This document shows, piece by piece, positions 1 through 16,892 of a stretch of 64,000 bases of DNA. A program made the translations under genes and the position numbers. The DNA lies in assembly GCA_049841135.1 (NCBI GenBank), contig JASGHK010000008.1:403272-467271 (forward strand), in the 5' to 3' direction. The notes under the pieces are model-generated. The model was not told the DNA's origin. It ran no database searches and saw only the letters and a program-made list of their open reading frames with translations. The DNA comes from Myxococcales bacterium. GTDB lineage: Bacteria; Myxococcota; Myxococcia; Myxococcales; UBA5297. Numbering within the stretch: position 1 is the first letter of the stretch; the number at the start of each line of letters is the position of its first letter.

Positions 1-606
1 ATCCTCATGGAGAACGTCCACCACAAGCCGCTGGAGGACAAGCCGGACCACGGCGCGCGCGTCGGCCGGGCGCTCGCGGAGATCCACTCCAAGGCCTACG
101 CCGCTGCCGGAACCCTCGACGCGGACCTCGACCTCGATCGGCGCACCCCCGACTTCGTGCAGTCGCTCGTCGAGCGCGCCGCCGGGAAGACGCGCGACGC
201 CTTCTCGGACCTGCGCGATGGCGTGGCGGCCCTGCTCGCCCGCACGCGCGGCTTCCTCGTCGACGCCGCCGGACCGGCGGTGCTCCTGCACGGGGACTTC
301 AAGCCCTCGAACCTGTTCGAGACGAGCTTCGGCCTCCTGGTCCTCGACTGGGAGCTCGCCTGCGCCGGCCCGGCGTTGGTGGACGTCGCCACGCTCCTGC
401 GCTGGGCGCCGCCGGAGGCCTTCGTCTCCGCGTTCGAGAAGGGCTACCAGGACGGGGGCGGCCGGCTGCCTCAAGGATGGCGCAAGGCCGCGCGCCTCTT
501 CGACCTGGTCGGCCTGGTCGAGCTGCTAGGTAACACCGCCCCGGGCACCCGCCGGGCGCACGACGTGCGCCAGCTCATCGAGCGCACCGTCGCCGAGGCG
601 GCCTGA
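1..606 (+). CDS. Phosphotransferase enzyme family protein (APH/choline-kinase-like), 5'-partial
   Basis: ORF runs in frame from nt 1. HGDFKPSNLF and LDWE motifs are typical of the APH C-terminal lobe. Stop TGA at 604-606. Confidence 0.6.
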   Translation: MLMENVHHKPLEDKPDHGARVGRALAEIHSKAYAAAGTLDADLDLDRRTPDFVQSLVERAAGKTRDAFSDLRDGVAALLARTRGFLVDAAGPAVLLHGDFKPSNLFETSFGLLVLDWELACAGPALVDVATLLRWAPPEAFVSAFEKGYQDGGGRLPQGWRKAARLFDLVGLVELLGNTAPGTRRAHDVRQLIERTVAEAA

Positions 607-609
607 GCG

Positions 610-1251
610 TCACGCCGCGGGCCGCTTGAACGCCTTGCGCGCCGCCTCGACCTCCGCGCGCACGCAGCAGCCGTCGAGGTGGTCGTCGACCAGCCCCATC
701 GCCTGCATGAACGCGTAGACCGTGGTCGGGCCCACGAAGGTCCAGCCGCGGCGCTTGAGGTCCTTGGAGAGCGCCACGGACTCGGCCGAGGTGCTCATCG
801 CCATCAGCGCCTGGCGCGTCAGCTTCTTCGGCCGGCTCTTGGGGTCGGGCTCGAAGCTCCAGAAGTAGGCGGAGAGCGAGCCGCGCTCGTCGACGAGTTC
901 GCACGCGCGCTGGGCGTTGTTGAGAGTGGACTCGATCTTCCCGCGGTGGCGGACGATCCGCGCGTCCTTGAGCAGGCGCTCGACGTCGCGTTTGCCGAAG
1001 CGGGCGACCTTCTCGAAGTCGAAGCCCGCGAAGTCCTCCCGGAAGGCCTCGCGCTTGCGCAGGATGGTCAGCCAGCTCAGGCCGGACTGGAACCCCTCCA
1101 GGCAAATTTTCTCGAAGAGCCGCCGGTCGTCGCGCATGGGGAAGCCCCATTCGCGGTCGTGGTAGGCCGCGTAATCCTTCTCGCCGGAGCCCCAGAAGCA
1201 GCGCCAGAGCCCGTCCTCGCCCTTGACCAGACCGTCGTCACGCTTCGCCAT
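610..1251 (-). CDS. tag: DNA-3-methyladenine glycosylase I
   Basis: Strong Tag signature (WGSGEKDYAAYHDREWGFP...LEGFQSGLSWLTIL). Start placed at the internal ATG (MAKRDDG) at 1249-1251. Confidence 0.85.
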   Translation of the reverse strand: MAKRDDGLVKGEDGLWRCFWGSGEKDYAAYHDREWGFPMRDDRRLFEKICLEGFQSGLSWLTILRKREAFREDFAGFDFEKVARFGKRDVERLLKDARIVRHRGKIESTLNNAQRACELVDERGSLSAYFWSFEPDPKSRPKKLTRQALMAMSTSAESVALSKDLKRRGWTFVGPTTVYAFMQAMGLVDDHLDGCCVRAEVEAARKAFKRPAA

Positions 1252-1301
1252 CCTCGTCGCTCCTCTGGACCCATCGGGCCTATGCGTCCCAGTCCCATGC
1301 G

Positions 1302-1946
1302 TCACCTACGTCCCATGTGTCCCATTCGTCCCAGCCCCCGGCGCGCGGCACGCATCAGCAGAAAGACCACGCCCAGGCTCGCCACCAGCCCTGCCGCGCC
1401 GGTGGCCCAGTCCCACGGGCCCCAAGCTGAACGGCCTGCGAGCGCCTGCGCCACCGAAGGCGCCATGGAGCCAGTCCAGGCATAGAGCGCGTTGAGCGGG
1501 ACCATGCCCAGGAGCGAAGCCACGACGAAGTCGCGTGCCCGCACTCGCGTCAGGCCGAGCCCGTAGTTGACGAGCCCGTACGGGAACAGCGGCGAGAGCC
1601 GCATCAAGAGGACGATGCCGAAGCCGTCGCGCTCCACCGCCTCGTCCACGCCGCGCCAGCGGACGTCCTTGGCGACCTTGGCTTCGATCCACGAGCGCCC
1701 GACCGTCCGACCGATGGCGAAAGAGAACGTCGCGGCGGTCACGCTCGCGAAGAGCCCGACGGCCAGGCCCCCGACCGCCCCGAAGGCAAACCCGGCGCCG
1801 AACACGAGCAGCACCTTGGGGACGAGCAGCGAGGCCGCGACCACGGCCACCGCGAAGTAAGCGCCCATGCCGAGCGCTCCAGCCTGACGCGCCCAGTCGA
1901 CGGCGGCGGCGAGCCATTCGCTCACGGGCAGCAGAGCGACCGCCAT
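1302..1946 (-). CDS. DedA/TVP38 family membrane protein
   Basis: Polytopic membrane ORF. VPKVLLVFGAGFAFG and LSPLFPYGLVNY motifs are characteristic of DedA/SNARE-associated proteins. Confidence 0.7.
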   Translation of the reverse strand: MAVALLPVSEWLAAAVDWARQAGALGMGAYFAVAVVAASLLVPKVLLVFGAGFAFGAVGGLAVGLFASVTAATFSFAIGRTVGRSWIEAKVAKDVRWRGVDEAVERDGFGIVLLMRLSPLFPYGLVNYGLGLTRVRARDFVVASLLGMVPLNALYAWTGSMAPSVAQALAGRSAWGPWDWATGAAGLVASLGVVFLLMRAARRGLGRMGHMGRR

Positions 1947-2019
1947 GGCGGCCAGCGCCAGCGCCGTGGCGAGAGCCGCGCCGCGCGCGAACTGAGCCTC
2001 GCCTGGTCTCTCCGGCCAC

Positions 2020-2274
2020 CTAACTGCTCCGCGGCTTTCTGGCCTTCGCTGCCTTGCCGGTCTTCCCGCCCCTCACGGACCCGCCCGCGCCCCGAGCAGC
2101 GATGAGCTCCGCCAGCTTCTCCGGGACGGGCCGGCACTGGCAGGCCCTGGCGTGCGCCTCGTGCCAGGCGATCCGCTGCTCGGTCGTCGGGTTCTTGGGC
2201 ATCCGGTTCTTGCGGTGCCACTCCGCGTTGATGGGCATGGAGCGGACTCTCGCGTTTCGTCCCCTTGCTCGCAA
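2020..2274 (-). CDS. Small basic conserved hypothetical protein (WH..NRMP...CxC motif)
   Basis: 84-aa ORF divergent from the quinone reductase gene. The start is uncertain (M1 or M13). I do not recognise a named family. Confidence 0.35.
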   Translation of the reverse strand: MRARGRNARVRSMPINAEWHRKNRMPKNPTTEQRIAWHEAHARACQCRPVPEKLAELIAARGAGGSVRGGKTGKAAKARKPRSS

Positions 2275-2327
2275 GCTGCTCGCCGGCTCCGTGGTTCGCA
2301 GATTGCGGCCACGAGGGGGATTCCGAC

Positions 2328-3245
2328 ATGAAGGCCATCCGCATCAACGAGTTCGGGTCGTCCGACAAGGTGCAGGTCGAGGACCTGCCGTTGCCCGAGG
2401 TCGAGACCGGCTTCGCGCTGGTACGCATCAAGGCCGCGGGCGTGAACCCGGTCGACTGGATGGTCCGGGAGAACATCTACAACCCCGAGGGTGCCGACCA
2501 GGTGCCTTTGACGCTCGGGCAAGATTTCGCGGGTGTCATCGAGAAGCTGGGCGACGGCTCGAAGACCGACCTGAAGCCAGGCGACGAGGTCTTCGGCGAG
2601 GTCTGGGGCTCGTTCGCCGAGTTCGCGCGCGTGCCGATCTCCGACCTGGTCCGAAAGCCCAAGGGCCTGACGTTCGAGGTAGCGGCGGCTCTTCCCATGC
2701 CCGCCCTCACGGCCTGGCAGTCGATCGTCGACACGGCGGGCGCCAAGCCCGGGATGCGCTTCCTCATCCATGGGGCGGGAGGCGCGGTCGGCTCGTTCGC
2801 CGCTCAGATCGCCAAGTACAAAGGCTGCTGGGTCGCAGCCACGGCCAGCCAAGCGAGCTTCCCGTTCCTCGAGAGCTGCGGCATCGACCTGCTGATCGAC
2901 TACGCGAAGGAGGACTTCGCCCAGAAGGTGCGCGACTGCGACGTGGTGCTCGACCCCATCGGTTCGGACGTGCTCGCGCGCTCGTACCAGGTGCTGAAGA
3001 AGGGCGGGATGCTCATCAACCTGCTGGGCGAGCTGAACGACGCGCAGGCCAACGCCGCAGGCGTGCAAGGGGTCAACTTCGGCATGGAGTACGACGTCGA
3101 GGACCTGGAGGAGTTCGCCGGTCTCGTGGAGCAGGGAGCCATCAAGCCGCACGTCTCGCAGGTCATGCCGCTCGACCAGGCGCGCAAGGCGCTGGACCTG
3201 AACCAGAACAACCAGTCCCACGGGAAGATCGTGCTGGTGCCCTAG
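2328..3245 (+). CDS. NADPH:quinone oxidoreductase / zinc-binding alcohol dehydrogenase family protein
   Basis: MKAIRINEFGSSDKVQVEDLPLPE...GVNPVDW and HGAGGAVGSFAAQIAK (Rossmann fold). ATG at 2328, TAG at 3243-3245. Confidence 0.8.
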   Translation: MKAIRINEFGSSDKVQVEDLPLPEVETGFALVRIKAAGVNPVDWMVRENIYNPEGADQVPLTLGQDFAGVIEKLGDGSKTDLKPGDEVFGEVWGSFAEFARVPISDLVRKPKGLTFEVAAALPMPALTAWQSIVDTAGAKPGMRFLIHGAGGAVGSFAAQIAKYKGCWVAATASQASFPFLESCGIDLLIDYAKEDFAQKVRDCDVVLDPIGSDVLARSYQVLKKGGMLINLLGELNDAQANAAGVQGVNFGMEYDVEDLEEFAGLVEQGAIKPHVSQVMPLDQARKALDLNQNNQSHGKIVLVP

Positions 3246-3312
3246 CAGTCGCGACCGCCCGAGTGGACGGGCTTGCTAAAGATAGGCAGCTAAAACGTGA
3301 CATATCCGCGGC

Positions 3313-5037
3313 CTAACCGAGCGGGTCCGCGAGCTTCCAGCCCTCTGCGACCAGCCGGTCCACGGCCTCCAACGCGGCCTGCAGCCGAGCCGCCCGACCC
3401 CCGCGGATCCACGCCCATCTCCGTCCCGACTCCCGCAGTCGCTGCTCGAAGAGGCCGGTCATCCAGCTGCGGATCCTCTCGCCGTCGCGCAGGACGTCTG
3501 CCGCGAACGGGACGTCGTCGGGATGGGTGAGCAGGTAGAGCGCGTTGCGCCGGGCGAGCGCCTCCACCGGCGCGGCTCGCCTGCCGACGTAGCGCTCGTG
3601 CCAGACACCGGTCGCGAAGGCATCGGTGTCGCAAACGAGCACCGGCCCGCCAAGGCGCGCCTCCCGGTCCTCCCAGCGGTTCTGCTCCGCGGCGATCTGC
3701 TCGAAGGCGCTGCTGGGCCAGGCAAGCTCCTCGAGCTCCGGCACCAGCCGACCTTCGAGCTGGGCGCGCGCGCGCTCCTGTGCGAGGAACTCCGCGGTGA
3801 AGGTCCAGCCGTACTCGGGCACCCAGCGCGTCGTGCCGAACGCTCCGCCGCGAACGCGGAGCGCCTGCGCCAGCTCCGCGGCCAGCGTGGTCTTCCCCGT
3901 CGACTCCGCGCCGACCAGCACCACCCGCTTCGCCAGCCCGCCACGCACCGGCTCCGCGAGCTGCGCCCAGGCCGCCGGCACGTCCTTGCGAACCAGCGTC
4001 CCGGAGATCGGCGCGAGCGCCCGCCCTGGGTCGACCGAGATCGCCTTGGCCCCCAGCCTGCGACCGAGCTCCTCGCCGTAGCTCTCGGAGGTGAAGACCG
4101 CGTCGATCGGCTCGCTCGTCAGCTGCCGCGCACCCTCGAGCATCAGGGCCACATGTGCGCGCCAGATGGCGTCGTCCTCGTATTCGATGGGGTGGTCGTC
4201 GCGGACGCCGGCCACCGAGACGTTCCGGTCCGGCGCGTGGACCTCCTTCATCCAGGCCACCCGGTCCTCCAGCGGGATGGACTCGACGCTGGCGGCCATG
4301 ACCACGACGCTGACGCGCTCGCACAGCGCCGCCGCGGTCCGCACCAGCAGGTGGTGCCCGGCGTGCGGCGGATAGAACTTGCCGATGACCAGGCCGTGGC
4401 GCGGCTTCATGTCGCGACCACCGGAGATTCGGCTTGGGCGCGGGCTTCCTGGCTCCAGGCGCGCAGGCCCAGGAAGCACATTCCCAGGAAGACGCCGTAG
4501 ACCGCTGCCGTCGGCACCAGAATCCTTGTAGAGGTAGAGCGGTATCGAGACCACGTCGACGGCGATCCAGAGCCACCACGACTCCAGCAGCTTCTTGGCC
4601 TGGCCGTACGTCGCGGCGAGGCTCAGCGCGACCACGCTGGCGTCCCAGACCGGGACCTTGGAGTCGGTCTTGCTCGAGAGCAGCGCCCAGACCGCCACGG
4701 TCCCCGCAGCCGTCGCCATCGCGAGCACCGCCCACTCGACCGAGGTCGTCCGCCGAATGGGCAGCTCCTGCCGAGCCGAGTCCTTGCGCGCCCACTCCCA
4801 CCAGCCATAGACGGCCAGGATGGCGAAGATGCCTTGGAGCGACGCGTCGCCGTAGAGCCCGGCCCACCAGAAGGACAGGAACCAGAAGGCGTTGTTGAGC
4901 AGCCCGATGGGCCAGTTGAGGATGTGCTTGCGCGCCACGAGCCAGACGCAGGCCAGCCCGGCGACGTCGCCTATCAGCTCCGACCAGCTGATCTTCCAGA
5001 GCAGCGGCTGGTTCAGGGCCGTGAAGAGCGCTTCCAT
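3313..5037 (-). CDS. pnuC-nadR: PnuC nicotinamide-riboside transporter fused in frame to NadR-type NMN adenylyltransferase/ribosylnicotinamide kinase
   Basis: N-terminal 175 aa is PnuC (7 TM, GLLNNAFWFLSFWW...IPLYLY). A Gly/Pro linker follows, then a NadR catalytic region from the internal Met at 4410 (GKFYPPHAGHHLLV, the HxGH nucleotidyltransferase motif, and Walker A VLVGAESTGKTTLA). There is no HTH domain. No in-frame stop separates the two parts. Confidence 0.7.
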   Translation of the reverse strand: MEALFTALNQPLLWKISWSELIGDVAGLACVWLVARKHILNWPIGLLNNAFWFLSFWWAGLYGDASLQGIFAILAVYGWWEWARKDSARQELPIRRTTSVEWAVLAMATAAGTVAVWALLSSKTDSKVPVWDASVVALSLAATYGQAKKLLESWWLWIAVDVVSIPLYLYKDSGADGSGLRRLPGNVLPGPARLEPGSPRPSRISGGRDMKPRHGLVIGKFYPPHAGHHLLVRTAAALCERVSVVVMAASVESIPLEDRVAWMKEVHAPDRNVSVAGVRDDHPIEYEDDAIWRAHVALMLEGARQLTSEPIDAVFTSESYGEELGRRLGAKAISVDPGRALAPISGTLVRKDVPAAWAQLAEPVRGGLAKRVVLVGAESTGKTTLAAELAQALRVRGGAFGTTRWVPEYGWTFTAEFLAQERARAQLEGRLVPELEELAWPSSAFEQIAAEQNRWEDREARLGGPVLVCDTDAFATGVWHERYVGRRAAPVEALARRNALYLLTHPDDVPFAADVLRDGERIRSWMTGLFEQRLRESGRRWAWIRGGRAARLQAALEAVDRLVAEGWKLADPLG

Positions 5038-6405
5038 CTAGGTCAGCTCGCTCCGGTAGGGGATCGCCTTGCGCTCGACGCCGAGCGTCTCGTCGAGGCG
5101 CACCGAGATCGTCGCGTCCTTCCCGAACAACTCGCGCAGCTCGGTGGCGACTTGATCTGGGTCGATGGGCGAGCCCCACGCCGGCCGCAGCGTCGCCTCG
5201 CAGGCGCCGTCGGCGCGCTGGACGAACTCGTGCTGAACCACCGCGAAGTTGTTCCGCAGCGCCCGGCCCACGTCGACTGGGTTCACCGGCGACCCGTCGG
5301 TGGCGCGGAAGACGACCGACCCGCGGCCCTCGAGGTCGACGATGCGGGGGCCGTCCGCACCCCAGACCATCCGGGCGAAGTCCCCGGTCCGGTAGCGCAG
5401 GAGCGGCAGGTACGGGTTGCGGCCACCGCTGACCACGATCTCTCCGCGCTGCCCTTCCGGGACCGGCAGGCCTTCGGCGTCCAGGATCTCGACGAAAAGG
5501 TCGCTCGCCAGCAGCGCCAGGCCGTCGCCTCCCGGCCTGCTGCAGGCGATCGGTCCCGTCTCGGTAGTCGAGTACCAGTCGAGGACCGGGCAGCCGTAGC
5601 GAGCCTCCAGCGACTGCGCCAGCGGCCGGGTCAGCGCGACCGCAGTGGAGAGCATGGCGGAAGGCTTGGCCGAGACCTCGAGCTTGAGCAGCTCGGAGAA
5701 CGAGCCCGGGTCGCCGGAGAGGAAACCGGGATCCATCTCCCGGACGAACCGGCGGCAGTCCTCGACGCCGCCGGACCAGGCGTGCGGATTGAGGTTGATG
5801 CGCGCGAAGCCAGCCTCGCGCCAGACCGAGAAGATGCTGGCATAGACCCAGACGCTCGCCTGGGCGCGCAGGTTCATGCACGACACCTGGCCGGAGCCTT
5901 CGCGAACCTTCCGGCCGTGCCAGCCGAGCGCGGTCTCGGCCAAGACGTGAAGCAGCGCCACGGCCCGCGGGTGGTGCGGGACGCGCACCGCATGGCCGGT
6001 CGTTCCACTGGTCTCGTAGACGATGAGCCGGTCGCGAGGCTCGTCCACCGGAAGGCACTGCTCGACGCGCGAGGCGATGTCCTCACGGGTCATGGTCGGC
6101 AGGTAGCCCCAGTCGCGGGCGAAGTCGAAGCCCTTGGGGACGCGCTCCTCCCAGAGCGGGACCTTCTCGCGCAAGGCAGCGATCCGCGCGACGAGCTCGT
6201 CCGGGGGCGTGAGCCGCGACGTCGGCTGAGTCGCGGCCTGTGCCTTTCGGAAATCCGCGACCACCGCGAGGTCCCCGGCGATGACATGGTCGCCGATCTC
6301 GTGCGTCCACTTCGGAGCGCTCCCGTGCTGCCGGATCCGCTCCAGCGTGCGCAGCCCGGCCTCGGTGGCGAGCGGGAACAGCCTTCGTGCCGCGTTCAGG
6401 TCCAT
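5038..6405 (-). CDS. Adenylate-forming enzyme, phenylacetate-CoA ligase / coenzyme F390 synthetase (PaaK/CapK) family
   Basis: YETSGTTGHAVRVPH (AMP-binding motif), WYSTTETG and RYRTGDFAR. Stop at 5038-5040 abuts the pnuC start at 5037. Start sits 3 nt after the upstream gene's stop. Confidence 0.75.
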   Translation of the reverse strand: MDLNAARRLFPLATEAGLRTLERIRQHGSAPKWTHEIGDHVIAGDLAVVADFRKAQAATQPTSRLTPPDELVARIAALREKVPLWEERVPKGFDFARDWGYLPTMTREDIASRVEQCLPVDEPRDRLIVYETSGTTGHAVRVPHHPRAVALLHVLAETALGWHGRKVREGSGQVSCMNLRAQASVWVYASIFSVWREAGFARINLNPHAWSGGVEDCRRFVREMDPGFLSGDPGSFSELLKLEVSAKPSAMLSTAVALTRPLAQSLEARYGCPVLDWYSTTETGPIACSRPGGDGLALLASDLFVEILDAEGLPVPEGQRGEIVVSGGRNPYLPLLRYRTGDFARMVWGADGPRIVDLEGRGSVVFRATDGSPVNPVDVGRALRNNFAVVQHEFVQRADGACEATLRPAWGSPIDPDQVATELRELFGKDATISVRLDETLGVERKAIPYRSELT

Positions 6406-6408
6406 GAG

Positions 6409-6997
6409 CTACTCCGAGCCATAGCGGGCCGCCGCCTGCCTCGCCGCCTCTGCCGCCATCTGCTCGCGGAGCTTTCGCGCCGCCTCTTCCTTGGCGCGCA
6501 TCTCGCGGATGACCTTCGCGCGCTCCACGCTCCCCAGGGACTTGAGACGGTCGGACGCCTGCGCGGTCGACTCCCCCCGCGGCAGTACCCCCAGCGCGGC
6601 GAGGAGCAACCGCGCCAGCTCTTCGCGCCGGTCGGGGTCGGAGACGAACAGGTCGGCGGCGACGAGCTTCCGAGAGCGGCCGCAGGCCGGTGGCGAGCCA
6701 GCCGCGCACCGGCTCGGCGAACGCGCCCTCCTCGACGAAGACCCGGTCGTGGCAGAGCCAGCTGGCCACCAGGGTGAGCCGCATCAGGTTGCGATCCTGC
6801 GACTTCGGCTGCTCCCAGGGGCCGACAGCCTTGTCGGGGATCGGCGTCGGAGCGCCCAGGTCCTCCAGCAGGTCCGACACCACCGCATCGACGCGCACGC
6901 CCTCGGCCTTGCCGCGCAGCCGCGGCTCGGCGAGGAACTCGCGCGGGCATTCGGCGAGCCGCCGCGTCAGCGACTCGATCAGCGGTGCTTCCCTCAT
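6409..6997 (-). pseudogene. Hypothetical protein, frameshifted (about 196 aa if repaired)
   Basis: Protein-like ORF from ATG 6995-6997 (MREAPLIESLTRRLAE...FAEPVRGWLATGLRPLS) slips by 1 nt near 6660. The downstream frame (KLVAADLFVSDPDRREELARLLLAALGVLPRGE...RYGSE, stop 6409-6411) is also protein-like. Start overlaps the stop of the vWA gene (ATGA). Confidence 0.45.
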
Positions 6998-8763
6998 GCC
7001 GTGCCCTCCTCTCGCATCCCGTAGCGCGCCCGGGAGAACTCGCGGGCGAAGGTCACGACCTCGGACATGTCGGTGACCGGATGCACCTTCCAGCCGATCT
7101 GCTCGAGGCGGTCGACGTCGTCCTGGTTGCTGCGCACGTCGATCTGCAGGACCGCCGTCGCTCCGCCACCCGCGCGCACGGCCGCCTCCCGGGCGATCTC
7201 CCAGCCGTTCTTCACTTCCTTGAGCATGTAGAAGAAGTCCGAGTCGCTCACGACGATGATGTGCGTCGGCCGCTTCATCGGCTCGCCGTCGAGGAAGGTC
7301 TCCTTCAGCCGCAGCACCCCGAAGGCGTAGCCGGTGCCCAGGTAGTTGGTCATCACCGCAAGCACGTCGCGCTCGCTGCGCACGAAGCCGTCCGTCTGCG
7401 CGTGCCGGCCCGGCTCCCCGGAGAGACAGGCCATGACCTTGGCCTTGGCGCGCAGCGCCGAGAGCGTGACCACGGCGCCGGCGAGGACCGGGTACGACAG
7501 GCCCACCGCGGGGTTGAGCATCGAGCCCGAGCAGTCGATGCCGATGTAGAGGTCGAGCGGCACGCGCTCGGGATCCGAGCCTTCGGTGGTGCCGTAGGTG
7601 CGCTCCAGCGTGGTGATGCCGGGGATGACCAGCGGGCTGTTGGCCAGCGTCCCCGTCCAGTCGATCTGCGAAACGGGAGAGCCGACGTCCCAGACGTCCA
7701 GGCCCTCGGGCAGCGGGTCGGCCGCCTGCTTTCGCAGCCGGACCGGGAACGGGACGAGGTGCGGGATGGCGCGCTCGCGGTAGTAGCGCATCACCAATTC
7801 CTTGGCGCTGGCCTTGACGCCCAGGCTCGCCATCAGCTCCACGTAGGCGTTCGGCTCGCGGTAGCGGTTCTTCACGCCGCCGTGGAGCTCACGCCCGACC
7901 GCCTTCCCGGGGTGCTCGGCGCCGGAGAGCTGCTCGCTCAGGCCGGTGATGTTCGGGTCCTCGCTGGGGTGCAGCGCGCCGCTCTCCTCGTCCTCGTCGA
8001 TCCCGGAGAGGCCGTCGGGGATGTCGTCGCTGGCGCCGGCGCCCTGGGTGTCGAGCCACTGGCCGCGGCAGCCCTTGGCTTCCGGCAGGTCGCGGATGTA
8101 CGGGAACAAGAGCGCCGCGAAGCGCCCGGCCCCGCCGAGCCAGTCCTTGGAGTAGGCGCGGATGACGCGCGCGCCCAGGTCCGCGTCGGTGCGCACGTTG
8201 GCGTCGTCCTCGGCATCCACCAGCGCGGTGCGCGGCATCCTCCAGAGCGTCTCGTAGATGCGCAGGTAGAGCGTCCAGAGCTTGTCCTTGTCGCTCCCCG
8301 GCTTCTTGAGCTTCTGGAAGACGCCGGCCATGTCCAGCTCGGCGCCGCGCTGCAGGCGGTCGTTGATGAGCAGGTCCGTGTAGAGGTTGGCGACGACGCC
8401 GGCGTAGCCCTCGCGGGAAGGCAGCCCGCGGCGGATGCGGGCGATGAGCCGGGCGTTGTCGCGCAGGTCGCCGGGCGCGTAGACGTGGTGGCCGATCTCG
8501 TGGGCGAGGATCTCCTCGCCGAAGTCCTGCAGGCCCTCCGCCTCGATCTGACGCAGGCTGATGACCACCGCGTGGTCGTCCAGGCGGATCATCGCGAACG
8601 AGCTGCTGAGCTTCTCCTGCTTCTCCTGCTCGACGGTGAGGCACCAGCGCGGGTCCTGGAGCTTGGTGAACTTGCTCCACGCCTGAAGCGCGGGCTCCCA
8701 CGCCGCCCGCCAGGACTCGAGCAGCGCGTCGGCGCGCTCCTGGGACAGCCCGGCCGCGCTCAA
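6994..8763 (-). CDS. vWA-domain protein with N-terminal HExxH zinc-metallopeptidase-like domain (DUF2201_N/DUF2201-like architecture)
   Basis: AHEIGHHVY (HExxH) in the N-terminal half. vWA MIDAS motif DLYIGIDCSGSM in the C-terminal half. Putative TTG start at 8761-8763 overlaps the TGA of the upstream gene, so the start is uncertain. Confidence 0.65.
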   Translation of the reverse strand: MSAAGLSQERADALLESWRAAWEPALQAWSKFTKLQDPRWCLTVEQEKQEKLSSSFAMIRLDDHAVVISLRQIEAEGLQDFGEEILAHEIGHHVYAPGDLRDNARLIARIRRGLPSREGYAGVVANLYTDLLINDRLQRGAELDMAGVFQKLKKPGSDKDKLWTLYLRIYETLWRMPRTALVDAEDDANVRTDADLGARVIRAYSKDWLGGAGRFAALLFPYIRDLPEAKGCRGQWLDTQGAGASDDIPDGLSGIDEDEESGALHPSEDPNITGLSEQLSGAEHPGKAVGRELHGGVKNRYREPNAYVELMASLGVKASAKELVMRYYRERAIPHLVPFPVRLRKQAADPLPEGLDVWDVGSPVSQIDWTGTLANSPLVIPGITTLERTYGTTEGSDPERVPLDLYIGIDCSGSMLNPAVGLSYPVLAGAVVTLSALRAKAKVMACLSGEPGRHAQTDGFVRSERDVLAVMTNYLGTGYAFGVLRLKETFLDGEPMKRPTHIIVVSDSDFFYMLKEVKNGWEIAREAAVRAGGGATAVLQIDVRSNQDDVDRLEQIGWKVHPVTDMSEVVTFAREFSRARYGMREEGTA

Positions 8764-9785
8764 GCGGCGCTCCCGACGCGGGCGACGAGGACGATCTTGT
8801 GGCTGTGGCGCAGGACGACGGCGAGCACCGTCTCGCTGGCCGCGAAGCCGCTCGCGCCCGCCAGCTCCGGCAGCCTGACCGTCAACCCGGCGAAGCTCAC
8901 GTTTCCGTCGTCCTCGACCATCGCCGGCCCCATCTGGCGCTCGTCGTCGGGCGGCTGCACTGCGCGCTGCAGCGTCTGCCCGAAGCAGTCGGCGTGGATG
9001 GACCAGAAGTGCTCGGCGTCGGCGGCGAAGACGTGCCGGCCGAAAGTGAAGAGGCGCGGCGGCGTGAGGAAGGGGCCGCCGAAGCCCCGGAAGCCGCCGA
9101 CCTTGCCCACGACCTTGAGCCTCGGCGGCAAGACCGCTGCTCCGGGCCGCTGCCAGGGATCGCCGAGAGCAGACTCCAGCACCGCCTTGGCCTCGCTCGA
9201 GCCGCGCGGCAGCCCCAGCGCCTCGCGCGCCAGCGAGTCCGGGAGCGTCCGCCAGGCATGGAGCGCCGAGTCGCGGTAGTGCGCCAGGCCGCAGCGCCAC
9301 GCGAGGACCTGGCCGCAGCTCAGCAGCTCGGCGACCCCCGGGCATCGCGGACCGAGCTCGCGCATGGCGGCGAGCCACTCGGATACGCGCGCCGAGGGCT
9401 CGAGTTCCAGGTTGTAGGCCGCGTTGGTGACGGCGCCGGCCACCCTGCCCGGCTCGTCCGCCAGCCGCGCGGCGAGGGTGGGGAGCAGCGTGCGCCAGGC
9501 CTCGACGACGTATGGGTGGCGGCTCGTCGGTCCGACCACGTCCTTCCCGACCAGGTCCACCGAGAGGTCGAAGAGCGCCTCGGTCACCGCATCGACGCGC
9601 TTCTCGTCCACCTTCTCAGCCGCAGCGACGGCTGGCGCGACCGCGTCCGCCAGGTGGGCCAGCAGCGCGACCGGGTCGATCTTGCGGCCCTGCCGGCGAA
9701 GCGTGGTCACGCGGGAGTTGAAGCGGTCGCGGTTGCGCTCCAGGGCGCGCGCGAGGGCGGAGTCGGCGGGGAGCGGCGGGCTCAT
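8760..9785 (-). CDS. Hypothetical protein (possible vWA-MoxR-associated partner)
   Basis: 341-aa ORF MSPPLPADSALARALERNRDRF.... Its ATG (9783-9785) overlaps the TGA (9782-9784) of the AAA+ gene. I recognise no domain. Confidence 0.5.
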   Translation of the reverse strand: MSPPLPADSALARALERNRDRFNSRVTTLRRQGRKIDPVALLAHLADAVAPAVAAAEKVDEKRVDAVTEALFDLSVDLVGKDVVGPTSRHPYVVEAWRTLLPTLAARLADEPGRVAGAVTNAAYNLELEPSARVSEWLAAMRELGPRCPGVAELLSCGQVLAWRCGLAHYRDSALHAWRTLPDSLAREALGLPRGSSEAKAVLESALGDPWQRPGAAVLPPRLKVVGKVGGFRGFGGPFLTPPRLFTFGRHVFAADAEHFWSIHADCFGQTLQRAVQPPDDERQMGPAMVEDDGNVSFAGLTVRLPELAGASGFAASETVLAVVLRHSHKIVLVARVGSAA

Positions 9786-11364
9786 CCCTTGAACTCCAGC
9801 CACTTCAGGTAGTTCGAATAGCGCTGGTGCAGGTACTTGAGCTTGAGGATGTCGTCGTAGAGGTGGCCGTAGAGCTTGCGGCCCTTGGACCACTGCCCCA
9901 GCGTGCGGGTGATGGCGTCGAGCCGGGCGCGGACCTGCTTCTCCTCCAGCCCGTCGAGGCCGGCCTCGAACTCGGCGGTGAGCTTCTCGACCGGGTCGTC
10001 GCGGTCCAGGTCCAGCCGCTCGAACTCCTTGCAGGAGAGGTCGAAGAGGTTGCGGATCCAGCTGACGTGGTCGATGCGGTAGGCGGCGTTGCCCTTGCGC
10101 TCGAACCAGGGCGAGTCGGCGTTCTGCACCAGCTTGTCGTGCAGCACGAAGGGCAGCATCTGCCGCACGTCCTCGAAGCTCACCTTCCGCTCGCCGCGGA
10201 AGAAGGCCATGGCCTTGAAGAAGACCATGCAGGTCATCAGCGAGCGCACCGACAGGCCGTTCCGGGTCTGGGTGCCGAGGTCCGCGACGGGGTCCTTGCC
10301 GGTCTCGGTGGTGGCCAGCGTCCCGGCGTCCACGCCCGAGAGCTTGAAGGTGTCCTTGGTCAGGTACTCGAGCTGCCGCGCGGCGGGCTCCATGAACTCG
10401 AAGTGGCTGGCGAAGAACTCCAGGCGCCGGCGCAGCTCGGGCGGAGCTCGATGGCCAGGATCTCGCGCTCCATCAGGTCGAGCTCGACCGGCTTGAAGAT
10501 GATCTCCGGCGGGACGACCTCCTCGGGCCGAACGTCCTCCTCGACGCGGGTCAAGAGCTCGCTGAGGAAGCGGGTGTTGAAGTGCAGCGCCTTGACCACC
10601 ACGTCGATCCGGTCGCGCAGCGCCTCGATGACCTGGTAGGTGCCGCCGCCGGCGTCGTCGTTGGCGGTCAGGTACCAGGCCGCCTTGGGGCACTCGTAGA
10701 TCTGGTCGTAGACCTCGGCGTAGTTGTCGGCCATCACCGTGAGCAGCGCCGACTGGGTGCGGGTGGGGATGCGGTTGTACTCGTCGATGATCTTCAGCCG
10801 CATGCCCAGCCAGCGCCGCCAGGCGATCTTCACCTCGTCCATCTCCTTGGCGTTGACGAGGCTCGACGGCAGCGGGTTGCCGAGCAGGTCGGAGACGGTC
10901 ATCTGCGGCTGGCCGTGCTGGATGGCGCGCTTGATCTCGCGCAGCGGGTAGCCGGAGAGCACGCCCATCAGGATGGCGATGGTCGTCTTGCCGCGCCCCG
11001 GTCCGCCGACGAGCAGGCAGCGGCGGCGCACCGCGAGGTTCAGGAGCGGCAGCAGCACGTAGCTCGAGTAGCTCTGGTCGCTGGGCAGGACGACGTCCAC
11101 GCCCTGGTCGCCGAACGCGAAGCGCTGCGGCGGGCCCTGGTTGTACTCGACGTCGTAGAACGGGTTGATGACCGCGTGGTTGGTGATCCAGAAGTAGGCC
11201 TGCCGCAGCTTCTCGTCGAGCGGCAGGCCGGTCGCCTCTCCGGAGGCCGACTCGATCTGCGCCGGGCCCTTGTAGAGATCGGCGACGTCGAAGCGCGCTT
11301 CGCCGGGCTTGGGGGCAGGGAGCGTCGGGGCCTGCGAGACCTGCTGGATCTTCTTCTTGGACAT
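9782..11364 (-). pseudogene. MoxR-like AAA+ ATPase with long C-terminal extension; frameshifted near 10436
   Basis: Walker A LLVGGPGRGKTT. MoxR-like IDEYNRIPTRTQSALLTVMAD and TANDDAGGGTYQVIEALRDRID. A 1-nt indel in the GGG run at about 10435-10437 splits the ORF track into 10360..11463 and 9782..10693. The repaired protein is about 527 aa. Confidence 0.65.
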
Positions 11365-11440
11365 GGTGGCGAGAGCTTCCCTTGGCCCTGCGATGGCGGT
11401 CAACGGCGGCCCTCCCGGCGCCGTGCTACTCCATGGCCCC

Positions 11441-12401
11441 ATGGCTGACCCGAAGCGAGGCAAGTGGTTCGAACGCGAGGTCGAGCGCGCCAGGAATCCC
11501 GAGCCCGACGACCCGGAGCGCCAGCGCCTGCTCTCGCTCGTCCTGGCCTCCCCCGACGACGTGCAGCCGCGCCTGGTCTACGCCGACTTCCTGATGGAGC
11601 GGGGCGACCCGCGCGGCGAGTTCGTCGCCGTCCAGTGCGAGCTGGCCCGCCTCGGCGGCCGCGACGCCACCGGACCGCGTGCCGAGGAGCTGAAGGCGCG
11701 CGAAGCCGAGCTGCTCAAGAAGCACAAGAAGAGGTGGGTGGGCCAGTACGCGGGGACGAAGACCCGCTACGGCATCGATGGCGGCCCGCAGTGGGTGAAG
11801 GGCAGCCCGACGACCTGGCAGTTCGCGCGCGGCTTCGTCGACTACGTCGGCATGTCGACCCGCGACTTCACCGCCAACGCCGAGGCCATCTTCGCCCACG
11901 AGCCGCTGCGGTGCGCCCACGTCACCGACCGCGACCTCGCGCCGCTGCTGAAGGACTGTCCCTGCCTGGAGAAGCTCCGCGCCTTCGACCTCTCGCGGGT
12001 CGCGCCTCAGGAAGCCGGCGCCCGGGCGCTCTTCTCGTCCGAGCGCTTCGAGTCGCTGCAGGTGCTCAACCTCAACCTCGCCCGCCTCGGCGTCGGCGCC
12101 ACCCAGGTCGCGGTGGCGGTGGGCCAACCTGCCAGCTTCCCGAAGCTGCGCGAGCTGTGGCTCTGGGAGAACGCTCTCGGCGACAAGGGCGCTGAAGCCA
12201 TCGCCGGCTGGCCGCTGCTGAGCGGCCTGAAGCGACTGGAGCTCGGCCACAACGGCATTGGCCCCCGGGGCGCGACCGCACTCGCCCGCTCTCCCCACCT
12301 CGACGGCATCGAGCGGCTCTCGCTGTTCGCGAACGACGTCGGCGACGCCGCCGGCGCGGAGCTTCGCGAGCGCTTCGGGAGATCGCATCGTGCTGCGGTG
12401 A
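11441..12401 (+). pseudogene. Leucine-rich-repeat protein with N-terminal TIGR02996 repeat-companion domain; frameshift near 12380
   Basis: DDPERQRLLSLVLASPDDVQPRLVYADFLMERGDPRGEFVAVQCEL is the TIGR02996 domain. Ribonuclease-inhibitor-like LRRs follow (LRELWLWENALGDKGAEAIA...). Removing one A at about 12378-12380 restores the ending ...RERFGDRIVLR*. Confidence 0.55.
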
Positions 12402-12449
12402 GCGGCCGGGGTATCCTCTGGAGCCCGTACCGGCACCGCCCGAGGCACC

Positions 12450-13660
12450 ATGATCAACCACTCCCATCCGCCGCGACCCTTCTTCCCCGCCCTCGTCCTC
12501 GGCTTGCTCCTCTCCTCGTTCGGAGCGGGCTGCGACTGCGAAACCACCACGGGCAAGTCCCACGAGAACCACACCGTGGACGTCCCCATCACCGGCACGC
12601 AGCTCAAGCCCTACGTGATGATGCTGGTGGACAAGTCGGGCTCGATGCTCGACCCCGCCGACTGCGCGCCGGGCGAGCCTGCACGCGCTGCGCGGACACC
12701 ACCGAGGGGCATTACGACCCCACCTCGACGAACCCCTGCAAGTGGAACGACCTGAAGGCGGCCCTGGCGTCCCGCGACCCCGCCAACCCGGGCTTCCTCG
12801 TCGCCGGCAAGGACATCGCGGCCTATGGGCTGGCCGTCTTCCCGGGTGGCTTCCCGCGCGGCGAGTCCTGCGAGACCGGCATGACGCTGGTGGGCCTGGA
12901 GCCCGGCGCGGACCACGTGGACCACATCATCGACCAGCTGGACGTGGTGAGCCCCGGCGGCGGCACGCCGACCGCGGCGATGCTGGAGCTGGTCTCCAAG
13001 CTGACCCGGCTCTCGGTCGAGGAGCCCGGCCGCAAGCGCTTCGTGATGCTCCTGACGGACGGCGAGCCCAACTGCAGCCAGACTCCGACCAACGTCACGC
13101 GCTGCCAGGAGTGCAACAGCACCAAGGACTGTGAAGGCGCCGGAAGGTGCAACCCCACCTTCCATGGCACGACCTCCTCCGCCCCGCCCTGCCTCTCGGA
13201 TACCGCCTGCCTGGACGACACCGGGCTCATCGAGCAGATCACGGCGCTGCGCGCGAAGGGCGTCGACACCTTCATCATCTGGTTCGGCTCCGCCTCGGCA
13301 CAGCCGTTCGCTGCCAAGGTGCTCAACGACGCCGCCGTCGCCGGAGGCAGGCCGCGCCCAGGCGCCACCACCAAGTACTGGGACGCCGCCAGCCGCGACG
13401 AGCTGCGCGCCTTGCTCAAGGACATCTCCAAGTCGCTGCAGACCTGCACCTTCACGCTGGACCCGGCGCCGACCGACCAGGACATCCTCGAGGTGACCTT
13501 CGTCGACAAGGCCAACGACGACGCCGAGACCACGCTCAACAAGGGCACGGACTACACGCTCAGCGCCGACGGCACGGTCGAGATCCTCGGGGACCGCTGC
13601 AAGCAGATCCAGGAGGCGGCGCCGGGGAGCCTCAACGTGCTCTTCCAGTACGTGAACTGA
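12450..13660 (+). pseudogene. vWA-domain lipoprotein with Cys-rich module; frameshift near 12690
   Basis: Signal peptide with lipobox (LLLSSFGAGC). vWA MIDAS motif VMMLVDKSGSM. The frame shifts by 1 nt near 12690 into the large 11309..13660 ORF (CTRCADTTEGHYDPTSTNPCKW...CQECNSTKDCEGAGRCNP). Confidence 0.55.
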
Positions 13661-13770
13661 CCGCCGGCGGGCGGACGATGTTGATCAACACCGACATATC
13701 TTTAGCAGCCGGCGAGCCACGGCCGCAGCTCCGCCAGAGCGGATGGTTCCCCGTGGGCGGCCTGCGCGCG

Positions 13771-14535
13771 TCAGTCCTTGACGGCGCCAGCGAGCTCGGT
13801 GAGCGGCGCCAGGCCGTTCTCCAGCGCCCCGGAGTGCGACGGTAGGAGCACCTTCACCTCGGCTGCCCGCTTCTCGAGCCGTGCCGCCAGCTCTCGCAGC
13901 GACCTGCGGTTTTGCCGCGTGTCTTGCGAGTAGAGCCAGTTGCCAGCCTCGAGCTTGCCACCGCTGCCGACCTCGGCGCTGTCGCCCAGGAAGAGCACTC
14001 CGCGCGCCAGGAAGGCGGCACTTCCCGGCGTGTGACCGGGGATGGCGAACACCTCGAACTTCGTCCCGCCGATCTCGACCGCCTCGCCGTCCTTGAGCAC
14101 GCGGCCGACCTTGAACCCTGCCGGCTTGGGCGCGGTCAACGGCGTGCGGGAGACGCGTCCCTCCGCCAGCGCCACGTCGGGCTCGAGCGCCATCACGGTG
14201 GCCTTCGGGAAGTGCCGCGCGCCGCGGGTGTGGTCATAGTCGCCGTGCGTCAGGAGGATCGCCTGGACCGCGTCGGGACCCAGCCCGCGCTTCTGGAGCG
14301 CCGCGAGCAGCGGCCCCGCGTCCTCGGCATCGCCCGCATCGATGAGCGCCACCTGCCCTGGAGCGACGTCGACGATGCAGGCGCTGACGAAGCCGTCCTT
14401 GACCACCTCCACACCCTGGACCCGCTGGCCTTCGGCGATGGGCGCCTTCCCGGCCACCGCCGCGGCGAACACGCCTGCCAGGCAGACGGCCAGCACGAGC
14501 ACCACCCCTGCGACGGTCTTGAGGAGCCTCTTCAT
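13771..14535 (-). CDS. Secreted MBL-fold metallo-hydrolase
   Basis: Signal peptide MKRLLKTVAGVVLVLAVCLAG. LLTHGDYDHTRG is the HxHxDH metallo-beta-lactamase motif. ATG at 14533-14535. Confidence 0.75.
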   Translation of the reverse strand: MKRLLKTVAGVVLVLAVCLAGVFAAAVAGKAPIAEGQRVQGVEVVKDGFVSACIVDVAPGQVALIDAGDAEDAGPLLAALQKRGLGPDAVQAILLTHGDYDHTRGARHFPKATVMALEPDVALAEGRVSRTPLTAPKPAGFKVGRVLKDGEAVEIGGTKFEVFAIPGHTPGSAAFLARGVLFLGDSAEVGSGGKLEAGNWLYSQDTRQNRRSLRELAARLEKRAAEVKVLLPSHSGALENGLAPLTELAGAVKD

Positions 14536-14646
14536 GGTGCGCGGGAGGATACCTGAATGCATCGCGGCCAGCGCTCGTCCCCTCCTGGCACAAACTCCCC
14601 ACTCCCCAGGCTTGCGGTAGGCCGCGGCTGGGCTACGCTTCGTCCC

Positions 14647-15969
14647 ATGCGAATCTTCCCTTCCCTCCTCCTCGCCGCCCTCGTCTGCGCGCCCCTGGCC
14701 AGCCACGCTGCGGATGCCAAGGTCGAACGTCCGGTCCTCAGCCTGTCGGGCGCCAACTTCCGACCCCTGCCGCTGGCCATCGCCGCGCCCCTCTTCGCCA
14801 ACGCCCAGGCGCCACGGCCCGCCGGCCAGGAGATCGACGACACGCTCCACCAGGACCTGACGGTCTCCGGCCTCTTCGACCTGCTCGACCGCAAGAGCTT
14901 CCTCGCCGAGGCGAACGAGGGCGTGGAGGTCGCGGCCATCAAGTTCTCGCGCTGGCAGGACGTGGGCGCGGAAGGGCTGGTGAAGGTGCTGGTCTCTGGC
15001 TCCGACCCGGTCACCGCCGAGTTCCACCTCTACAGCTCGGTGGGCGCGAAGGAGGAGCTGAAGAAGACCTACACCGCCCCGCTCGCCTCCGTCCGCACGC
15101 TCGCCCACCGCTTCGCGGACGACCTGTTCGCCTTCTACACGCGCGAGCCAGGCGCCTTCCAGACGCGGCTGGCGTTCGTGAAGAAGGTCAAGAACATCAA
15201 GCAGGTCTTCGTCGGCGACTGGGACGGCCAGAACGCCCGGCAGATCACCCTCTCCAGCCTGAACCTGCTGCCCGCCTGGTCCGCCGACGGCAACAAGCTC
15301 ATCTACACCGGTTACGGCTCGGGCACGCCCGACCTGTGGAGCTTCGACTTCCGCACCAACAAGGCGCAGCTCGTCTTCCACCGCAGCTCGGCCCTCATCA
15401 CCGGCGGCTGCTACAGCCAGGACGGTCGCCGCATCGCCTTCGCGATGAGCGAGGACGACGGCAACAGCCACCTCTGGGTCGCCGACGCCAACGGCGAGAA
15501 CGCCAAGAAGCTCACCGACGGCTTCGGCATCAACTCCAGCCCGACCTTCTCCCCGGACAGCAAGCAGCTGGCCTTCGTCTCCAACCGCGCCGGCACCCCG
15601 CAGATCTACGTGATGCCCGCCGAGGGCGGCGCCGCCAAGCGGCTCACCTTCCAGGGCAACTACAACCAGACCCCGGACTGGTCTCCCCGCGGCGACCTCA
15701 TCGTCTTCACCGCCCGCGACGAGCGGAACGTCTTCGACATCTTCACCGCCGACCCGGCCACCGGGAAGATCGCCCGCTTGACGCAGGACCAGGGCAACAA
15801 CGAGGAGCCGACCTTCTCGCCCAACGGCCGGCTCATCGCCTTCACCTCCACGCGCAACGGCACCAGCCAGCTGTTCGTCATGAGCGCCGACGGCAACTCC
15901 CAGCGCCAGATGACCGCCGGCAAGGACCCGGTCTACACGCCGGCTTGGGGGCCCTTCCTCAAGCAGTGA
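14647..15969 (+). CDS. tolB: TolB family beta-propeller periplasmic protein
   Basis: Signal peptide followed by repeated TolB-type blades (PAWSADGNKLIY, PTFSPDSKQLAFVSNRAGTPQIYVM, PDWSPRGDLIVFTA, PTFSPNGRLIAFTSTRNG). ATG at 14647. Confidence 0.8.
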   Translation: MRIFPSLLLAALVCAPLASHAADAKVERPVLSLSGANFRPLPLAIAAPLFANAQAPRPAGQEIDDTLHQDLTVSGLFDLLDRKSFLAEANEGVEVAAIKFSRWQDVGAEGLVKVLVSGSDPVTAEFHLYSSVGAKEELKKTYTAPLASVRTLAHRFADDLFAFYTREPGAFQTRLAFVKKVKNIKQVFVGDWDGQNARQITLSSLNLLPAWSADGNKLIYTGYGSGTPDLWSFDFRTNKAQLVFHRSSALITGGCYSQDGRRIAFAMSEDDGNSHLWVADANGENAKKLTDGFGINSSPTFSPDSKQLAFVSNRAGTPQIYVMPAEGGAAKRLTFQGNYNQTPDWSPRGDLIVFTARDERNVFDIFTADPATGKIARLTQDQGNNEEPTFSPNGRLIAFTSTRNGTSQLFVMSADGNSQRQMTAGKDPVYTPAWGPFLKQ

Positions 15970-16041
15970 CGCTCGCCCCGTCGTGATCGACGAGCCCGGC
16001 CCCTTCTCCTGGGACCGGGCTCGCTGCTTTCTGGGGGCTCG

Positions 16042-16728: not shown

Positions 16729-16892
16729 GGGGTCCTCCTGGAGAGAAGCCGATGCGGTTGGTGGGTGCGTGCAGGAGCAGCTGTCTCATCCTCGCCGCTG
16801 GCGCACGCAGGCCGCAAACGGGCGGCTTGGCGCCTAGCTGCACGGCCGTGCGATGATGCGTCCGGTTTCCAACCGTACCCGGGGGTTCTTCC

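Follow-up and report, generated by a model that had tools for sequence, protein, structure and literature searches.

A conserved MoxR-vWA gene cluster of at least ten phyla and its recurrent linkage to nicotinamide-riboside salvage genes, as seen in a Myxococcales bacterium

Among the characterised MoxR-vWA pairs, in which a MoxR-type AAA+ ATPase works with a partner carrying a vWA domain (NorQ/NorD, CbbQ/CbbO, CoxD/CoxE, RavA/ViaA, midasin-Rsa4), most functions are of the activase or metal-insertion type. NorQD, CbbQO and midasin(-Rsa4) share one principle, capture of the client by the metal-ion-dependent adhesion site (MIDAS) of the vWA domain and remodelling by the ATPase. Put in general terms for MoxR-vWA pairs, the MIDAS captures an acidic residue of the client, and the ATPase remodels that client (PMC7159879). 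Another described system consists of two genes only: PnuC and a NadR-like enzyme, as in the pair of phage NARP3, alone convert imported nicotinamide riboside (NR) to NAD+ (PMC13464706). Here we describe a locus in which both kinds of parts occur together, a string of seven genes at positions 3313-11364 of a 64,000-nt stretch of DNA (hereafter the window) from contig JASGHK010000008.1 of a Myxococcales bacterium (assembly GCA_049841135.1). Five of the genes, P1 to P5, form a core, and the other two are pnuC and nadR. P1-P5 plus PnuC-NadR is a real, widespread, chromosomally inherited and uncharacterised system; no description of this gene combination was found in the literature.

Like the chaperone pairs, the locus encodes a MoxR ATPase and a vWA partner with a full MIDAS, and the principle of MIDAS grip and ATPase remodelling is likely common to them. 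Unlike those pairs, its vWA protein P3 has an N-terminal HExxHH domain, P2, P4 and P5 are fixed parts of the operon with no metalloenzyme client nearby, and P1 is about 200 aa longer than a typical MoxR and matches the AAA_3 family only weakly. The other two genes resemble the known salvage pairs, including that of NARP3 (PMC13464706), in encoding PnuC together with a two-function NadR that carries both sets of catalytic motifs and lacks a helix-turn-helix (HTH) domain, and in being translationally coupled. Here, in contrast, the pair lies on the chromosome beside a five-gene core in many phyla, and its NadR reaches 156 bits against an equivalog cut-off of 341. By analogy, the system would work like a MoxR-vWA chaperone pair. 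It also contains a standard NR salvage pair, and what appears new in it are two orphan families, P2 and P4.

Layout and conservation of the gene cluster

The window has a G+C content of about 70%, and the seven genes, all on the minus strand, are densely packed within 3313-11364. The genes and the sites discussed below are as follows, with 'repair' referring to the correction of single-base indels.

9782 to 11364, minus strand: P1, MoxR-like AAA+ ATPase, 527 aa after repair (AAA_3, AAA_lid_2 and motifs; 1-nt deletion between 10445 and 10444)
8760 to 9785, minus strand: P2, 341-aa orphan with a helical-repeat N-terminal domain and an all-beta C-terminal domain, probable adaptor
6994 to 8763, minus strand: P3, 589 aa, N-terminal HExxHH zincin-like domain, disordered linker and C-terminal vWA domain with complete MIDAS
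8485 to 8502, minus strand: HEIGHH, P3 residues 88-93, putative zinc-binding/catalytic motif (invariant; activity predicted)
7522 to 7536, minus strand: DCSGS, P3 residues 410-414, MIDAS DxSxS of the vWA domain (invariant, inside the vWA fold)
6409 to 6997, minus strand: P4, ~195-aa orphan with a charged tail and a terminal Glu (1-nt insertion at 6668/6669)
6412 to 6414, minus strand: GAG codon for the C-terminal Glu of P4, followed by TAG
5038 to 6405, minus strand: P5, PaaK-like ANL-superfamily ligase, 455 aa, with a family-specific N-terminal extension of ~100 aa
4407 to 5037, minus strand: PnuC, nicotinamide-riboside transporter, a separate gene (TIGR01528 after repair; 1-nt insertion at 4521/4522)
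3313 to 4410, minus strand: NadR-type nicotinamide mononucleotide (NMN) adenylyltransferase/ribosylnicotinamide kinase without HTH, 365 aa (TIGR01526, AAA_28, CTP_transf_like)

P1 and P2 share an ATGA overlap (P1 stop 9782-9784, P2 ATG 9783-9785), P2 and P3 a TTGA overlap (P2 stop 8760-8762, P3 TTG 8761-8763; the same TTG start is used in NCBI's own 589-aa call), and P3 and P4 an ATGA overlap at 6994-6997. The stop of P4 (6409-6411) and the ATG of P5 (6403-6405) are separated by 3 nt (6406-6408), the stop of P5 (5038-5040) directly adjoins the ATG of pnuC (5035-5037), and, after frame repair, the TGA of pnuC (4407-4409) overlaps the ATG of nadR (4408-4410) in a further ATGA coupling. A promoter/terminator scan of the gene string gave no promoter-like sites above chance, and terminator-like sites were not in excess either. 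Rfam matched neither a riboswitch nor any other RNA in window positions 1-20000 or in seven of the related loci, and a k-mer search of 56 regions upstream of P1 revealed no shared motif above shuffled controls. A preliminary description of the window, made from its letters alone, had reported the minus-strand string with its start/stop overlaps, 3-nt gap and adjacency, all of which were recovered on rereading at the same positions. It had also proposed a single co-expressed unit, which is plausible, since the couplings hold and the scan gave no sign of a promoter or terminator within the string. Its count of six genes was one short, pnuC and nadR being separate.

Three 1-nt indels were located by three-frame translation and alignment to a relative (locus L005, ~84% nucleotide identity): one base of P1 is missing between 10445 and 10444, P4 has an extra A at 6668/6669, and pnuC loses its frame through an extra T at 4521/4522. 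Two frameshifts had been noted before, at 6660 and 10436, and both exist close by; the third had been missed, and with it the separate pnuC gene, so that the two salvage genes had been described as a PnuC-NadR fusion. In the correct frame PnuC runs '...LVPTAAVYGVFLGMCFLGLRAW...VAT*' through its last helix to TGA 4407-4409, and the repaired protein covers positions 2-186 of 187 of TIGR01528 with 93 bits (cut-off 42.45); the unrepaired fusion ORF spans only positions 1-151 of 175 of Pfam NMN_transporter. In every related locus that carries both, pnuC and nadR are separate genes. The fusion protein is thus rejected as a frameshift artefact, its single frame being created by the extra T, and the operon comprises seven genes.

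With three of seven genes out of frame, the frameshifts could be taken as marks of pseudogenes and the juxtaposition with pnuC-nadR as meaningless. Against this, each indel is a lone single-base change in an otherwise intact, conserved coding sequence without further stops, and all genes are intact in L005 as well as in the other loci, save for a few probable assembly frameshifts. Moreover, flanking genes show further frame changes, and a sister metagenome-assembled genome (MAG) of neighbouring locus-tag prefix carries a nanopore ('ont') bin label. This suggests that indels of the nanopore type occur in the contig about once every few kb. From the lone changes in intact frames, the flanking frame changes and the nanopore-labelled sister MAG we infer that the three indels probably arose in sequencing or assembly and not by pseudogenisation. 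Together with the recurrence of the pnuC-nadR linkage in 30 of 82 loci, this effectively excludes chance or decay.

A pattern-plus-tblastn scan of one genome per species detected a relative of P3 in at least 331 species. For comparison of gene order we used 82 non-redundant loci, many of the incomplete ones ending at contig borders. The complete colinear core P1-P2-P3-P4-P5 is present in 51 of them, from at least ten phyla, and the gene order, whose conservation beyond close relatives the preliminary description had put forward as a test, is therefore kept over large distances. Carriers are found in the Myxococcota, in many Planctomycetota, in the Acidobacteriota/Thermoanaerobaculia, Nitrospinota, Desulfobacterota-type lineages and Bradymonadales, and also in Verrucomicrobia, Kiritimatiellae, Victivallales, Rhodothermales, Bacteroidota, Gamma- and Alphaproteobacteria and Abditibacteriaceae. 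Compared with the proteins of the window, P1 has a median identity of 67% (56-78%; 65 loci from many phyla), P3 of 53%, P4 of 43%, P5 of 39% and P2 of 35%. Architecture and length of P3 are constant over 80 loci and the 120 homologues listed. As judged from these sequence comparisons, the pattern indicates old co-inheritance under strong constraint, especially on the ATPase P1. Recent horizontal transfer as the source of the high P1 identity was rejected, since P2, P4 and P5 of the same loci are far more diverged. A reduced version, P5-P3-P4 without P1 and P2 nearby, occurs in the Bradymonadales-type loci L018, L024, L025 and L050, as judged from flanks that reach up to ~9 kb in L025 and L050. 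The neighbours of these loci, and of loci that retain P1-P2-P3 only, are unrelated genes that give no functional clue.

In 30 of the 82 loci pnuC and/or nadR adjoin the core, which corresponds to about 55% of the loci that have 3 kb or more of flank on each side. The distance is ~0-1.4 kb, and 4.2 kb in one locus. Where both genes are present they mainly lie downstream on the same strand (5 loci, as in the window), downstream and convergent (6 loci) or upstream and divergent (14 loci). Since independent rearrangements have retained the linkage, a functional connection of pnuC-nadR to the core is well supported, and the tie to NAD metabolism suggested by the preliminary description is borne out by its recurrence across many phyla in three arrangements.

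Proteins encoded by the cluster

Repaired P1 contains a Walker A motif (GGPGRGKT), a Walker B motif (IIDE) and an arginine motif (ALRDRI), all read directly, and matches Pfam AAA_3 (4.3e-8, 33.6 bits, cut-off 27) and AAA_lid_2 (3.6e-6, 27.1 bits, cut-off 22.7). The only solved chain that it matched is 2r44 (3e-5), which we take to be a MoxR-type protein. On these motifs and matches P1 is classed as a MoxR-class AAA+ ATPase with intact ATPase motifs. Its extra ~200 residues had been described as a C-terminal extension of roughly 190 aa; they are in fact divided roughly among ~110 aa at the N-terminus, an insert and ~110 aa after the lid domain.

P3 belongs to a family of more than 2900 members without a Pfam model, and a Pfam scan of 24 P3 homologues at E values up to 10 returned one weak VWA match only. 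The HEIGHH motif, part of a helical N-terminal domain, does not vary among 24 diverse homologues; the helix that carries it (residues 79-95) follows three short strands, as in zincins. At the other end of the protein, the MIDAS is complete (DCSGS...T...D), invariant in homologues and situated within a vWA fold. The nearest structural neighbours of this fold include NorD, the midasin MIDAS domain and Rpn10, with NorD of the NorQD complex being the closest from bacteria. P3 pairs an HExxHH domain with a vWA domain bearing a complete MIDAS; the peptidase activity is putative.

The similarity to NorD raises the question of whether P1-P3 could be an activase or metal-insertion chaperone of the NorQD, CbbQO or CoxDE kind, in which P2 and P4 would be adaptors and one enzyme, possibly P5 or an NAD-dependent enzyme encoded elsewhere, would be matured. 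Most characterised MoxR-vWA pairs are of this kind, and the strong conservation fits a housekeeping-type assembly role. We nevertheless regard this explanation as very unlikely: no metalloenzyme or other obvious client is conserved beside the cluster, some loci have P1-P2-P3 without P5, and the HExxH domain, the terminal Glu of P4 and the linkage to PnuC-NadR would all be left unexplained.

Searches of P2, P3 and P4 against Pfam, NCBIfam, PADLOC and PHROG gave no matches, and profile searches against PDB sequences gave nothing significant. P2 consists of a helical repeat followed by an all-beta domain; its structure was modelled with confidence, and no solved structure is a close neighbour of the model. 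P4 is helical, with a conserved tail rich in Lys, Arg, Ala and Glu before its terminal residue, and matched nothing in any family library or among PDB sequences. Neither protein has a Pfam or NCBIfam model, and a match of either to a housekeeping family, which the preliminary description had named as evidence against its idea, did not appear in the library and profile searches. P2 and P4 are orphan families found only in the P1-P5 system, P2 being a probable adaptor.

The P4 family comprises at least 1055 clusters, with a length of mostly ~193-200 aa among the 120 homologues listed. The C-terminal residue is Glu in 103 of these 120, whereas 15 end in Glu-Trp (REW) and the two remaining C-termini look like read-through or frameshift products. 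Of the complete P4 copies in the locus set, all but one end in E (68) or EW (8). The EW ending, with ...REW instead of ...RE (loci L001, L008, L010, L015, L036 and L077), arose in at least five separate lineages as judged by P3 distance. This suggests that the two endings are interchangeable, the terminal Trp being removable or otherwise equivalent. The terminal Glu is also retained in loci without an adjacent P5 (L015, L053, L055, L063).

P5 matches Pfam AMP-binding (1.2e-10, 41.3 bits, cut-off 29.9), and its profile finds phenylacetate-CoA ligases in the PDB at 1.5e-24 and 3e-23. The core motifs A3 (TSGTTG), A5 (TE), A7 (YRTGD) and A8 (GR) are conserved, and all 28 sequences compared have the A10 lysine (K446). 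P5 is, by fold and motifs, assigned to the ANL superfamily as a PaaK-like adenylate-forming ligase with intact catalytic motifs. With the PaaK family it shares the core fold and these motifs including the A10 lysine, but it scores far below every equivalog cut-off, carries an N-terminal extension of ~100 aa and has no paa-pathway context. Its best NCBIfam match is a DVU_1553-family ligase (7e-25, 87.8 bits vs a cut-off of 300), and P5 as a PaaK orthologue was rejected with 25.7 bits vs 646 for TIGR02155 and 37.2 vs 700 for NF041878.

NadR covers positions 2-316 of 325 of TIGR01526 (1e-45), below the equivalog cut-off given above, and also matches AAA_28 (1.5e-22) and CTP_transf_like. PDB matches range from 1e-25 to 1e-8 and comprise 9x6f (1e-25) and the NadR structures 8x7f, 1lw7 and 6gye. 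The motifs PPHAGH, ISGTLVR and GAESTGKT were read directly. The absence of an HTH, proposed before, agrees with the match to the full NadR profile, which begins only at position 64. NadR is accordingly annotated as a two-domain NMN adenylyltransferase and ribosylnicotinamide kinase, and by analogy to the phage pair PnuC and this HTH-less NadR would constitute a self-sufficient module leading from NR via NMN to NAD+.

A proposed mechanism and its alternatives

Our favoured reading, to which we give a probability of roughly 40%, is a composite one: a MoxR-vWA remodelling/ligation machine that acts on the terminal Glu of P4 and is coupled to NR-derived NAD+, with mechanistic links that we infer. 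The MIDAS of P3 would grip a client carboxylate, and a P1 hexamer would remodel the client using ATP. The dedicated client would be P4, held through its invariant C-terminal Glu with P2 as adaptor; the terminal carboxylate is proposed as the handle because P4 and P5 are the only conserved candidates for a dedicated client. P5 would adenylate a carboxylate of the pathway, most plausibly the terminal Glu of P4, and ligate it to a nucleophile, as suggested by the presence of an adenylate-forming ligase beside a protein with an invariant C-terminal Glu. The HExxH domain, which resides on the same protein as the MIDAS and is for that reason considered here, might trim or reverse the P5 step, so that genomes could encode either ...E or ...EW. 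Finally, the attachment of the NR-to-NAD+ module suggests that the core process would consume or depend on NAD+ or an NR-derived nucleotide supplied by PnuC-NadR.

Several observations weigh against this composite reading. The role assigned to the terminal Glu of P4 is proposed from its conservation, and the MIDAS could instead bind one of the other acidic residues that are invariant in P4. The relatives of P5 act on small aryl acids and not on proteins. For the HExxH domain of P3, neither a peptidase family nor a solved structure was matched, vWA matches having dominated both fold searches. Some Acidobacteriota and Nitrospinota loci (L019, L051, L064) have P1-P2-P3 without P4 and P5, and about 45% of the well-sampled loci have no pnuC-nadR nearby. 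Furthermore, the model leaves the chemical connection between NAD+ or NR and the core unexplained.

In its most specific form, the idea would make P4 the tag or carrier of an unrecognised bacterial ligation system: P5 would activate its Glu, the HExxH domain of P3 would expose or remove it (E vs EW), and the P3 MIDAS and the P1 ring with P2 would recognise and unfold or remodel the conjugate, coupled chemically or regulatorily to NR-derived NAD+. We consider this form unlikely as it stands. It invites comparison with LysW and Pup, which are small (~54-64 aa), end in Glu or Gln and are served by an ATP-grasp ligase (LysX) or a ligase resembling glutamine synthetase (PafA), and with the ...EEY cycle of alpha-tubulin. 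As in those systems, P4 has a conserved C-terminal Glu on a flexible charged tail and is encoded beside an ATP-dependent ligase and a metallopeptidase-like domain, and its E/EW dimorphism recalls precursor trimming (Pup-Gln, tubulin-Tyr). However, P4 is ~195 aa long with a conserved globular part, P5 is of the ANL type rather than ATP-grasp or glutamine-synthetase-like, no proteasome or lysine/arginine pathway genes accompany it, and no sequence similarity was found. P4 as an actual LysW-type carrier or Pup was therefore rejected, only the C-terminal Glu being common to them, and the resemblance is a functional analogy only.

Some lineages add genes to the core that bear on the kind of chemistry involved. 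In 11 Pirellulales loci (L028, L037, L038, L040, L041, L044, L046, L047, L052, L057 and L070; e.g., L044:6224-7279) a radical-SAM/SPASM enzyme of ~335-360 aa is encoded directly upstream of P1, often with a divergent pnuC on its other side. Its resemblance to peptide/protein maturases is only generic, and it could modify P4, whose tail there ends in ...SASRYGE. Eight Planctomycetota loci (L034, L037, L039, L043, L059, L060, L075 and L080; e.g., L037:7939-8907) contain a gene of ~330 aa between P1 and P2. The C-terminal domain of its product matches nucleoside 2-deoxyribosyltransferase (NDT; Pfam 4.9e-7) and a TIR-effector model of PADLOC (2.2e-11) and carries the motif NVYLEVGYA; its N-terminal domain has no family match. 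These two genes, kinases and sensor kinases are the recurrent neighbours other than pnuC and nadR, each of them lineage-specific only. As a group, the accessory genes are in keeping with a combination of protein modification and nucleotide chemistry.

Both genes would have a place in carrier-protein biosynthesis, in which a small molecule or cofactor is built on the Glu of P4 in a LysW- or pearlin-like manner: P5 would load the carrier, accessory enzymes would tailor its cargo, the HExxH domain would release it, and PnuC and NadR would supply or move a nucleoside block. The invariant C-terminal Glu of P4, the neighbouring ATP-dependent ligase and the metallopeptidase-like domain encoded by the operon are in line with such a pathway, as are the radical-SAM/SPASM enzyme of peptide-maturase type and the NDT-like N-glycosidase, an enzyme type used in peptidyl-nucleoside pathways. 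Yet the tailoring enzymes are absent from most loci, and the MoxR-vWA pair has no known role in pathways of this sort. Known carrier systems employ ATP-grasp or PEARL ligases and small carriers of ~50-100 aa, unlike the 195 aa of P4 and its ANL ligase, and the very high conservation of P1 would be unusual for secondary metabolism. This alternative thus seems rather improbable to us.

Among all versions of the system, no effector-like gene other than the NDT/TIR-like insert was seen, and this insert bears on a role in anti-phage defence or abortive infection, which the preliminary description had raised. In a system of that type the MoxR-vWA pair would gate the depletion or modification of NAD+ or nucleotides by an effector, after which PnuC-NadR would restore NAD+, or from which they would protect the cell. 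MoxR-vWA pairs do form the core of conflict systems whose third components are often TIR or deoxyribohydrolase proteins (PMC7159879), PnuC with a NadR-like enzyme is a proven NAD+-restoring pair in phage-host conflict (PMC13464706), and the carriers are mostly large-genome, socially complex bacteria. The comparisons that we made point in the other direction. None of 5027 PADLOC models (PADLOC 2.0) was matched by the core proteins beyond P-loop noise, P1 and NadR giving E values of only ~0.004-0.009 and P2-P5 nothing. Searches of 2.9 million viral contigs and 72,556 plasmids with P3 gave no homologue. The genes flanking the cluster in the window are of the housekeeping kind (TolB, Tag, DedA, an alcohol dehydrogenase) and syntenic with the relative at ~84% nucleotide identity, and 102 flanking proteins from 17 loci gave a few generic kinase/ATPase matches and no enrichment for defence. 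In addition, the architecture is fixed and highly conserved, without variable effector domains, and most loci lack a recognisable toxic effector. A defence function is therefore unlikely.

The more specific resemblance to MoxR-vWA-associated ternary systems, also raised before, was not upheld by the features that define those of the VMAP type. VMAP-C is an alpha/beta domain of about seven strands and six to seven helices (PMC7159879, Kaur et al. 2020), whereas P2 is a helical repeat plus an all-beta domain and P4 is helical; moreover, the vWA domain forms the C-terminus of P3 with no variable effector domains after it, and the system is conserved rather than diversifying. The iSTAND systems are marked by a STAND NTPase that is inactive, the FtsH systems by a double FtsH AAA+ protein and the beta-propeller systems by a propeller of ~4 blades fused behind the vWA domain, and a GXXXTAKS P-loop is frequent among them (PMC7159879). 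None of these components is present in the window or in the related loci, and the P-loop of P1 is canonical. What the locus does share with the ternary conflict systems is a MoxR and vWA core with at least one further conserved protein, enrichment in Planctomycetota and deltaproteobacteria-like lineages, and the deoxyribohydrolase/TIR-like gene of the eight planctomycete loci; the ANL ligase, NadR and PnuC, on the other hand, are not mentioned in PMC7159879. In our favoured reading the P1-P5 system would behave as a conserved cytoplasmic maturation, tagging or carrier machine and not as a diversifying immune system.

Adjacent genes and implications

Divergent from P1, the plus-strand neighbour at 11309-13660 encodes a leucine-rich-repeat protein (LRR_6) followed by a region without a Pfam match, and positions 11692-12361 have no counterpart in the otherwise syntenic L005. 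The ORFs of this relative, followed by tblastn, switch frame at ~12350-12680, in the gene at 12354-13657, and at ~2280-2315, near the start of a zinc-type dehydrogenase gene at 2265-3245; both switches are probably indel errors in one or the other assembly. In an acidobacterial locus (L003), three small genes, one of them AF2212-like, lie between P3 and P4 (L003:11890-12536), and a BrnT/BrnA toxin-antitoxin pair lies just upstream of P1 (L003:6425-7019). From these insertions it follows that the operon tolerates small mobile insertions.

MoxR-vWA pairs are among the commonest poorly understood ATPase systems of bacteria, and here such a pair is part of a fixed five-gene set that hundreds of species from many phyla carry and whose ATPase reaches about the conservation of a housekeeping protein. 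Two features make the system experimentally tractable: the invariant terminal Glu of P4 beside an adenylating ligase offers a first handle, and the recurrent linkage to NR-to-NAD+ salvage a second. If the ligation idea holds, the system would represent a new way of modifying protein C-termini or a new kind of carrier system, with a Pup- or LysW-like logic realised from entirely different parts in at least ten phyla. If instead the NAD link reflects conflict, it would be a new NAD-centred immune or stress module. The P1-P5 family deserves a name and a curated model.

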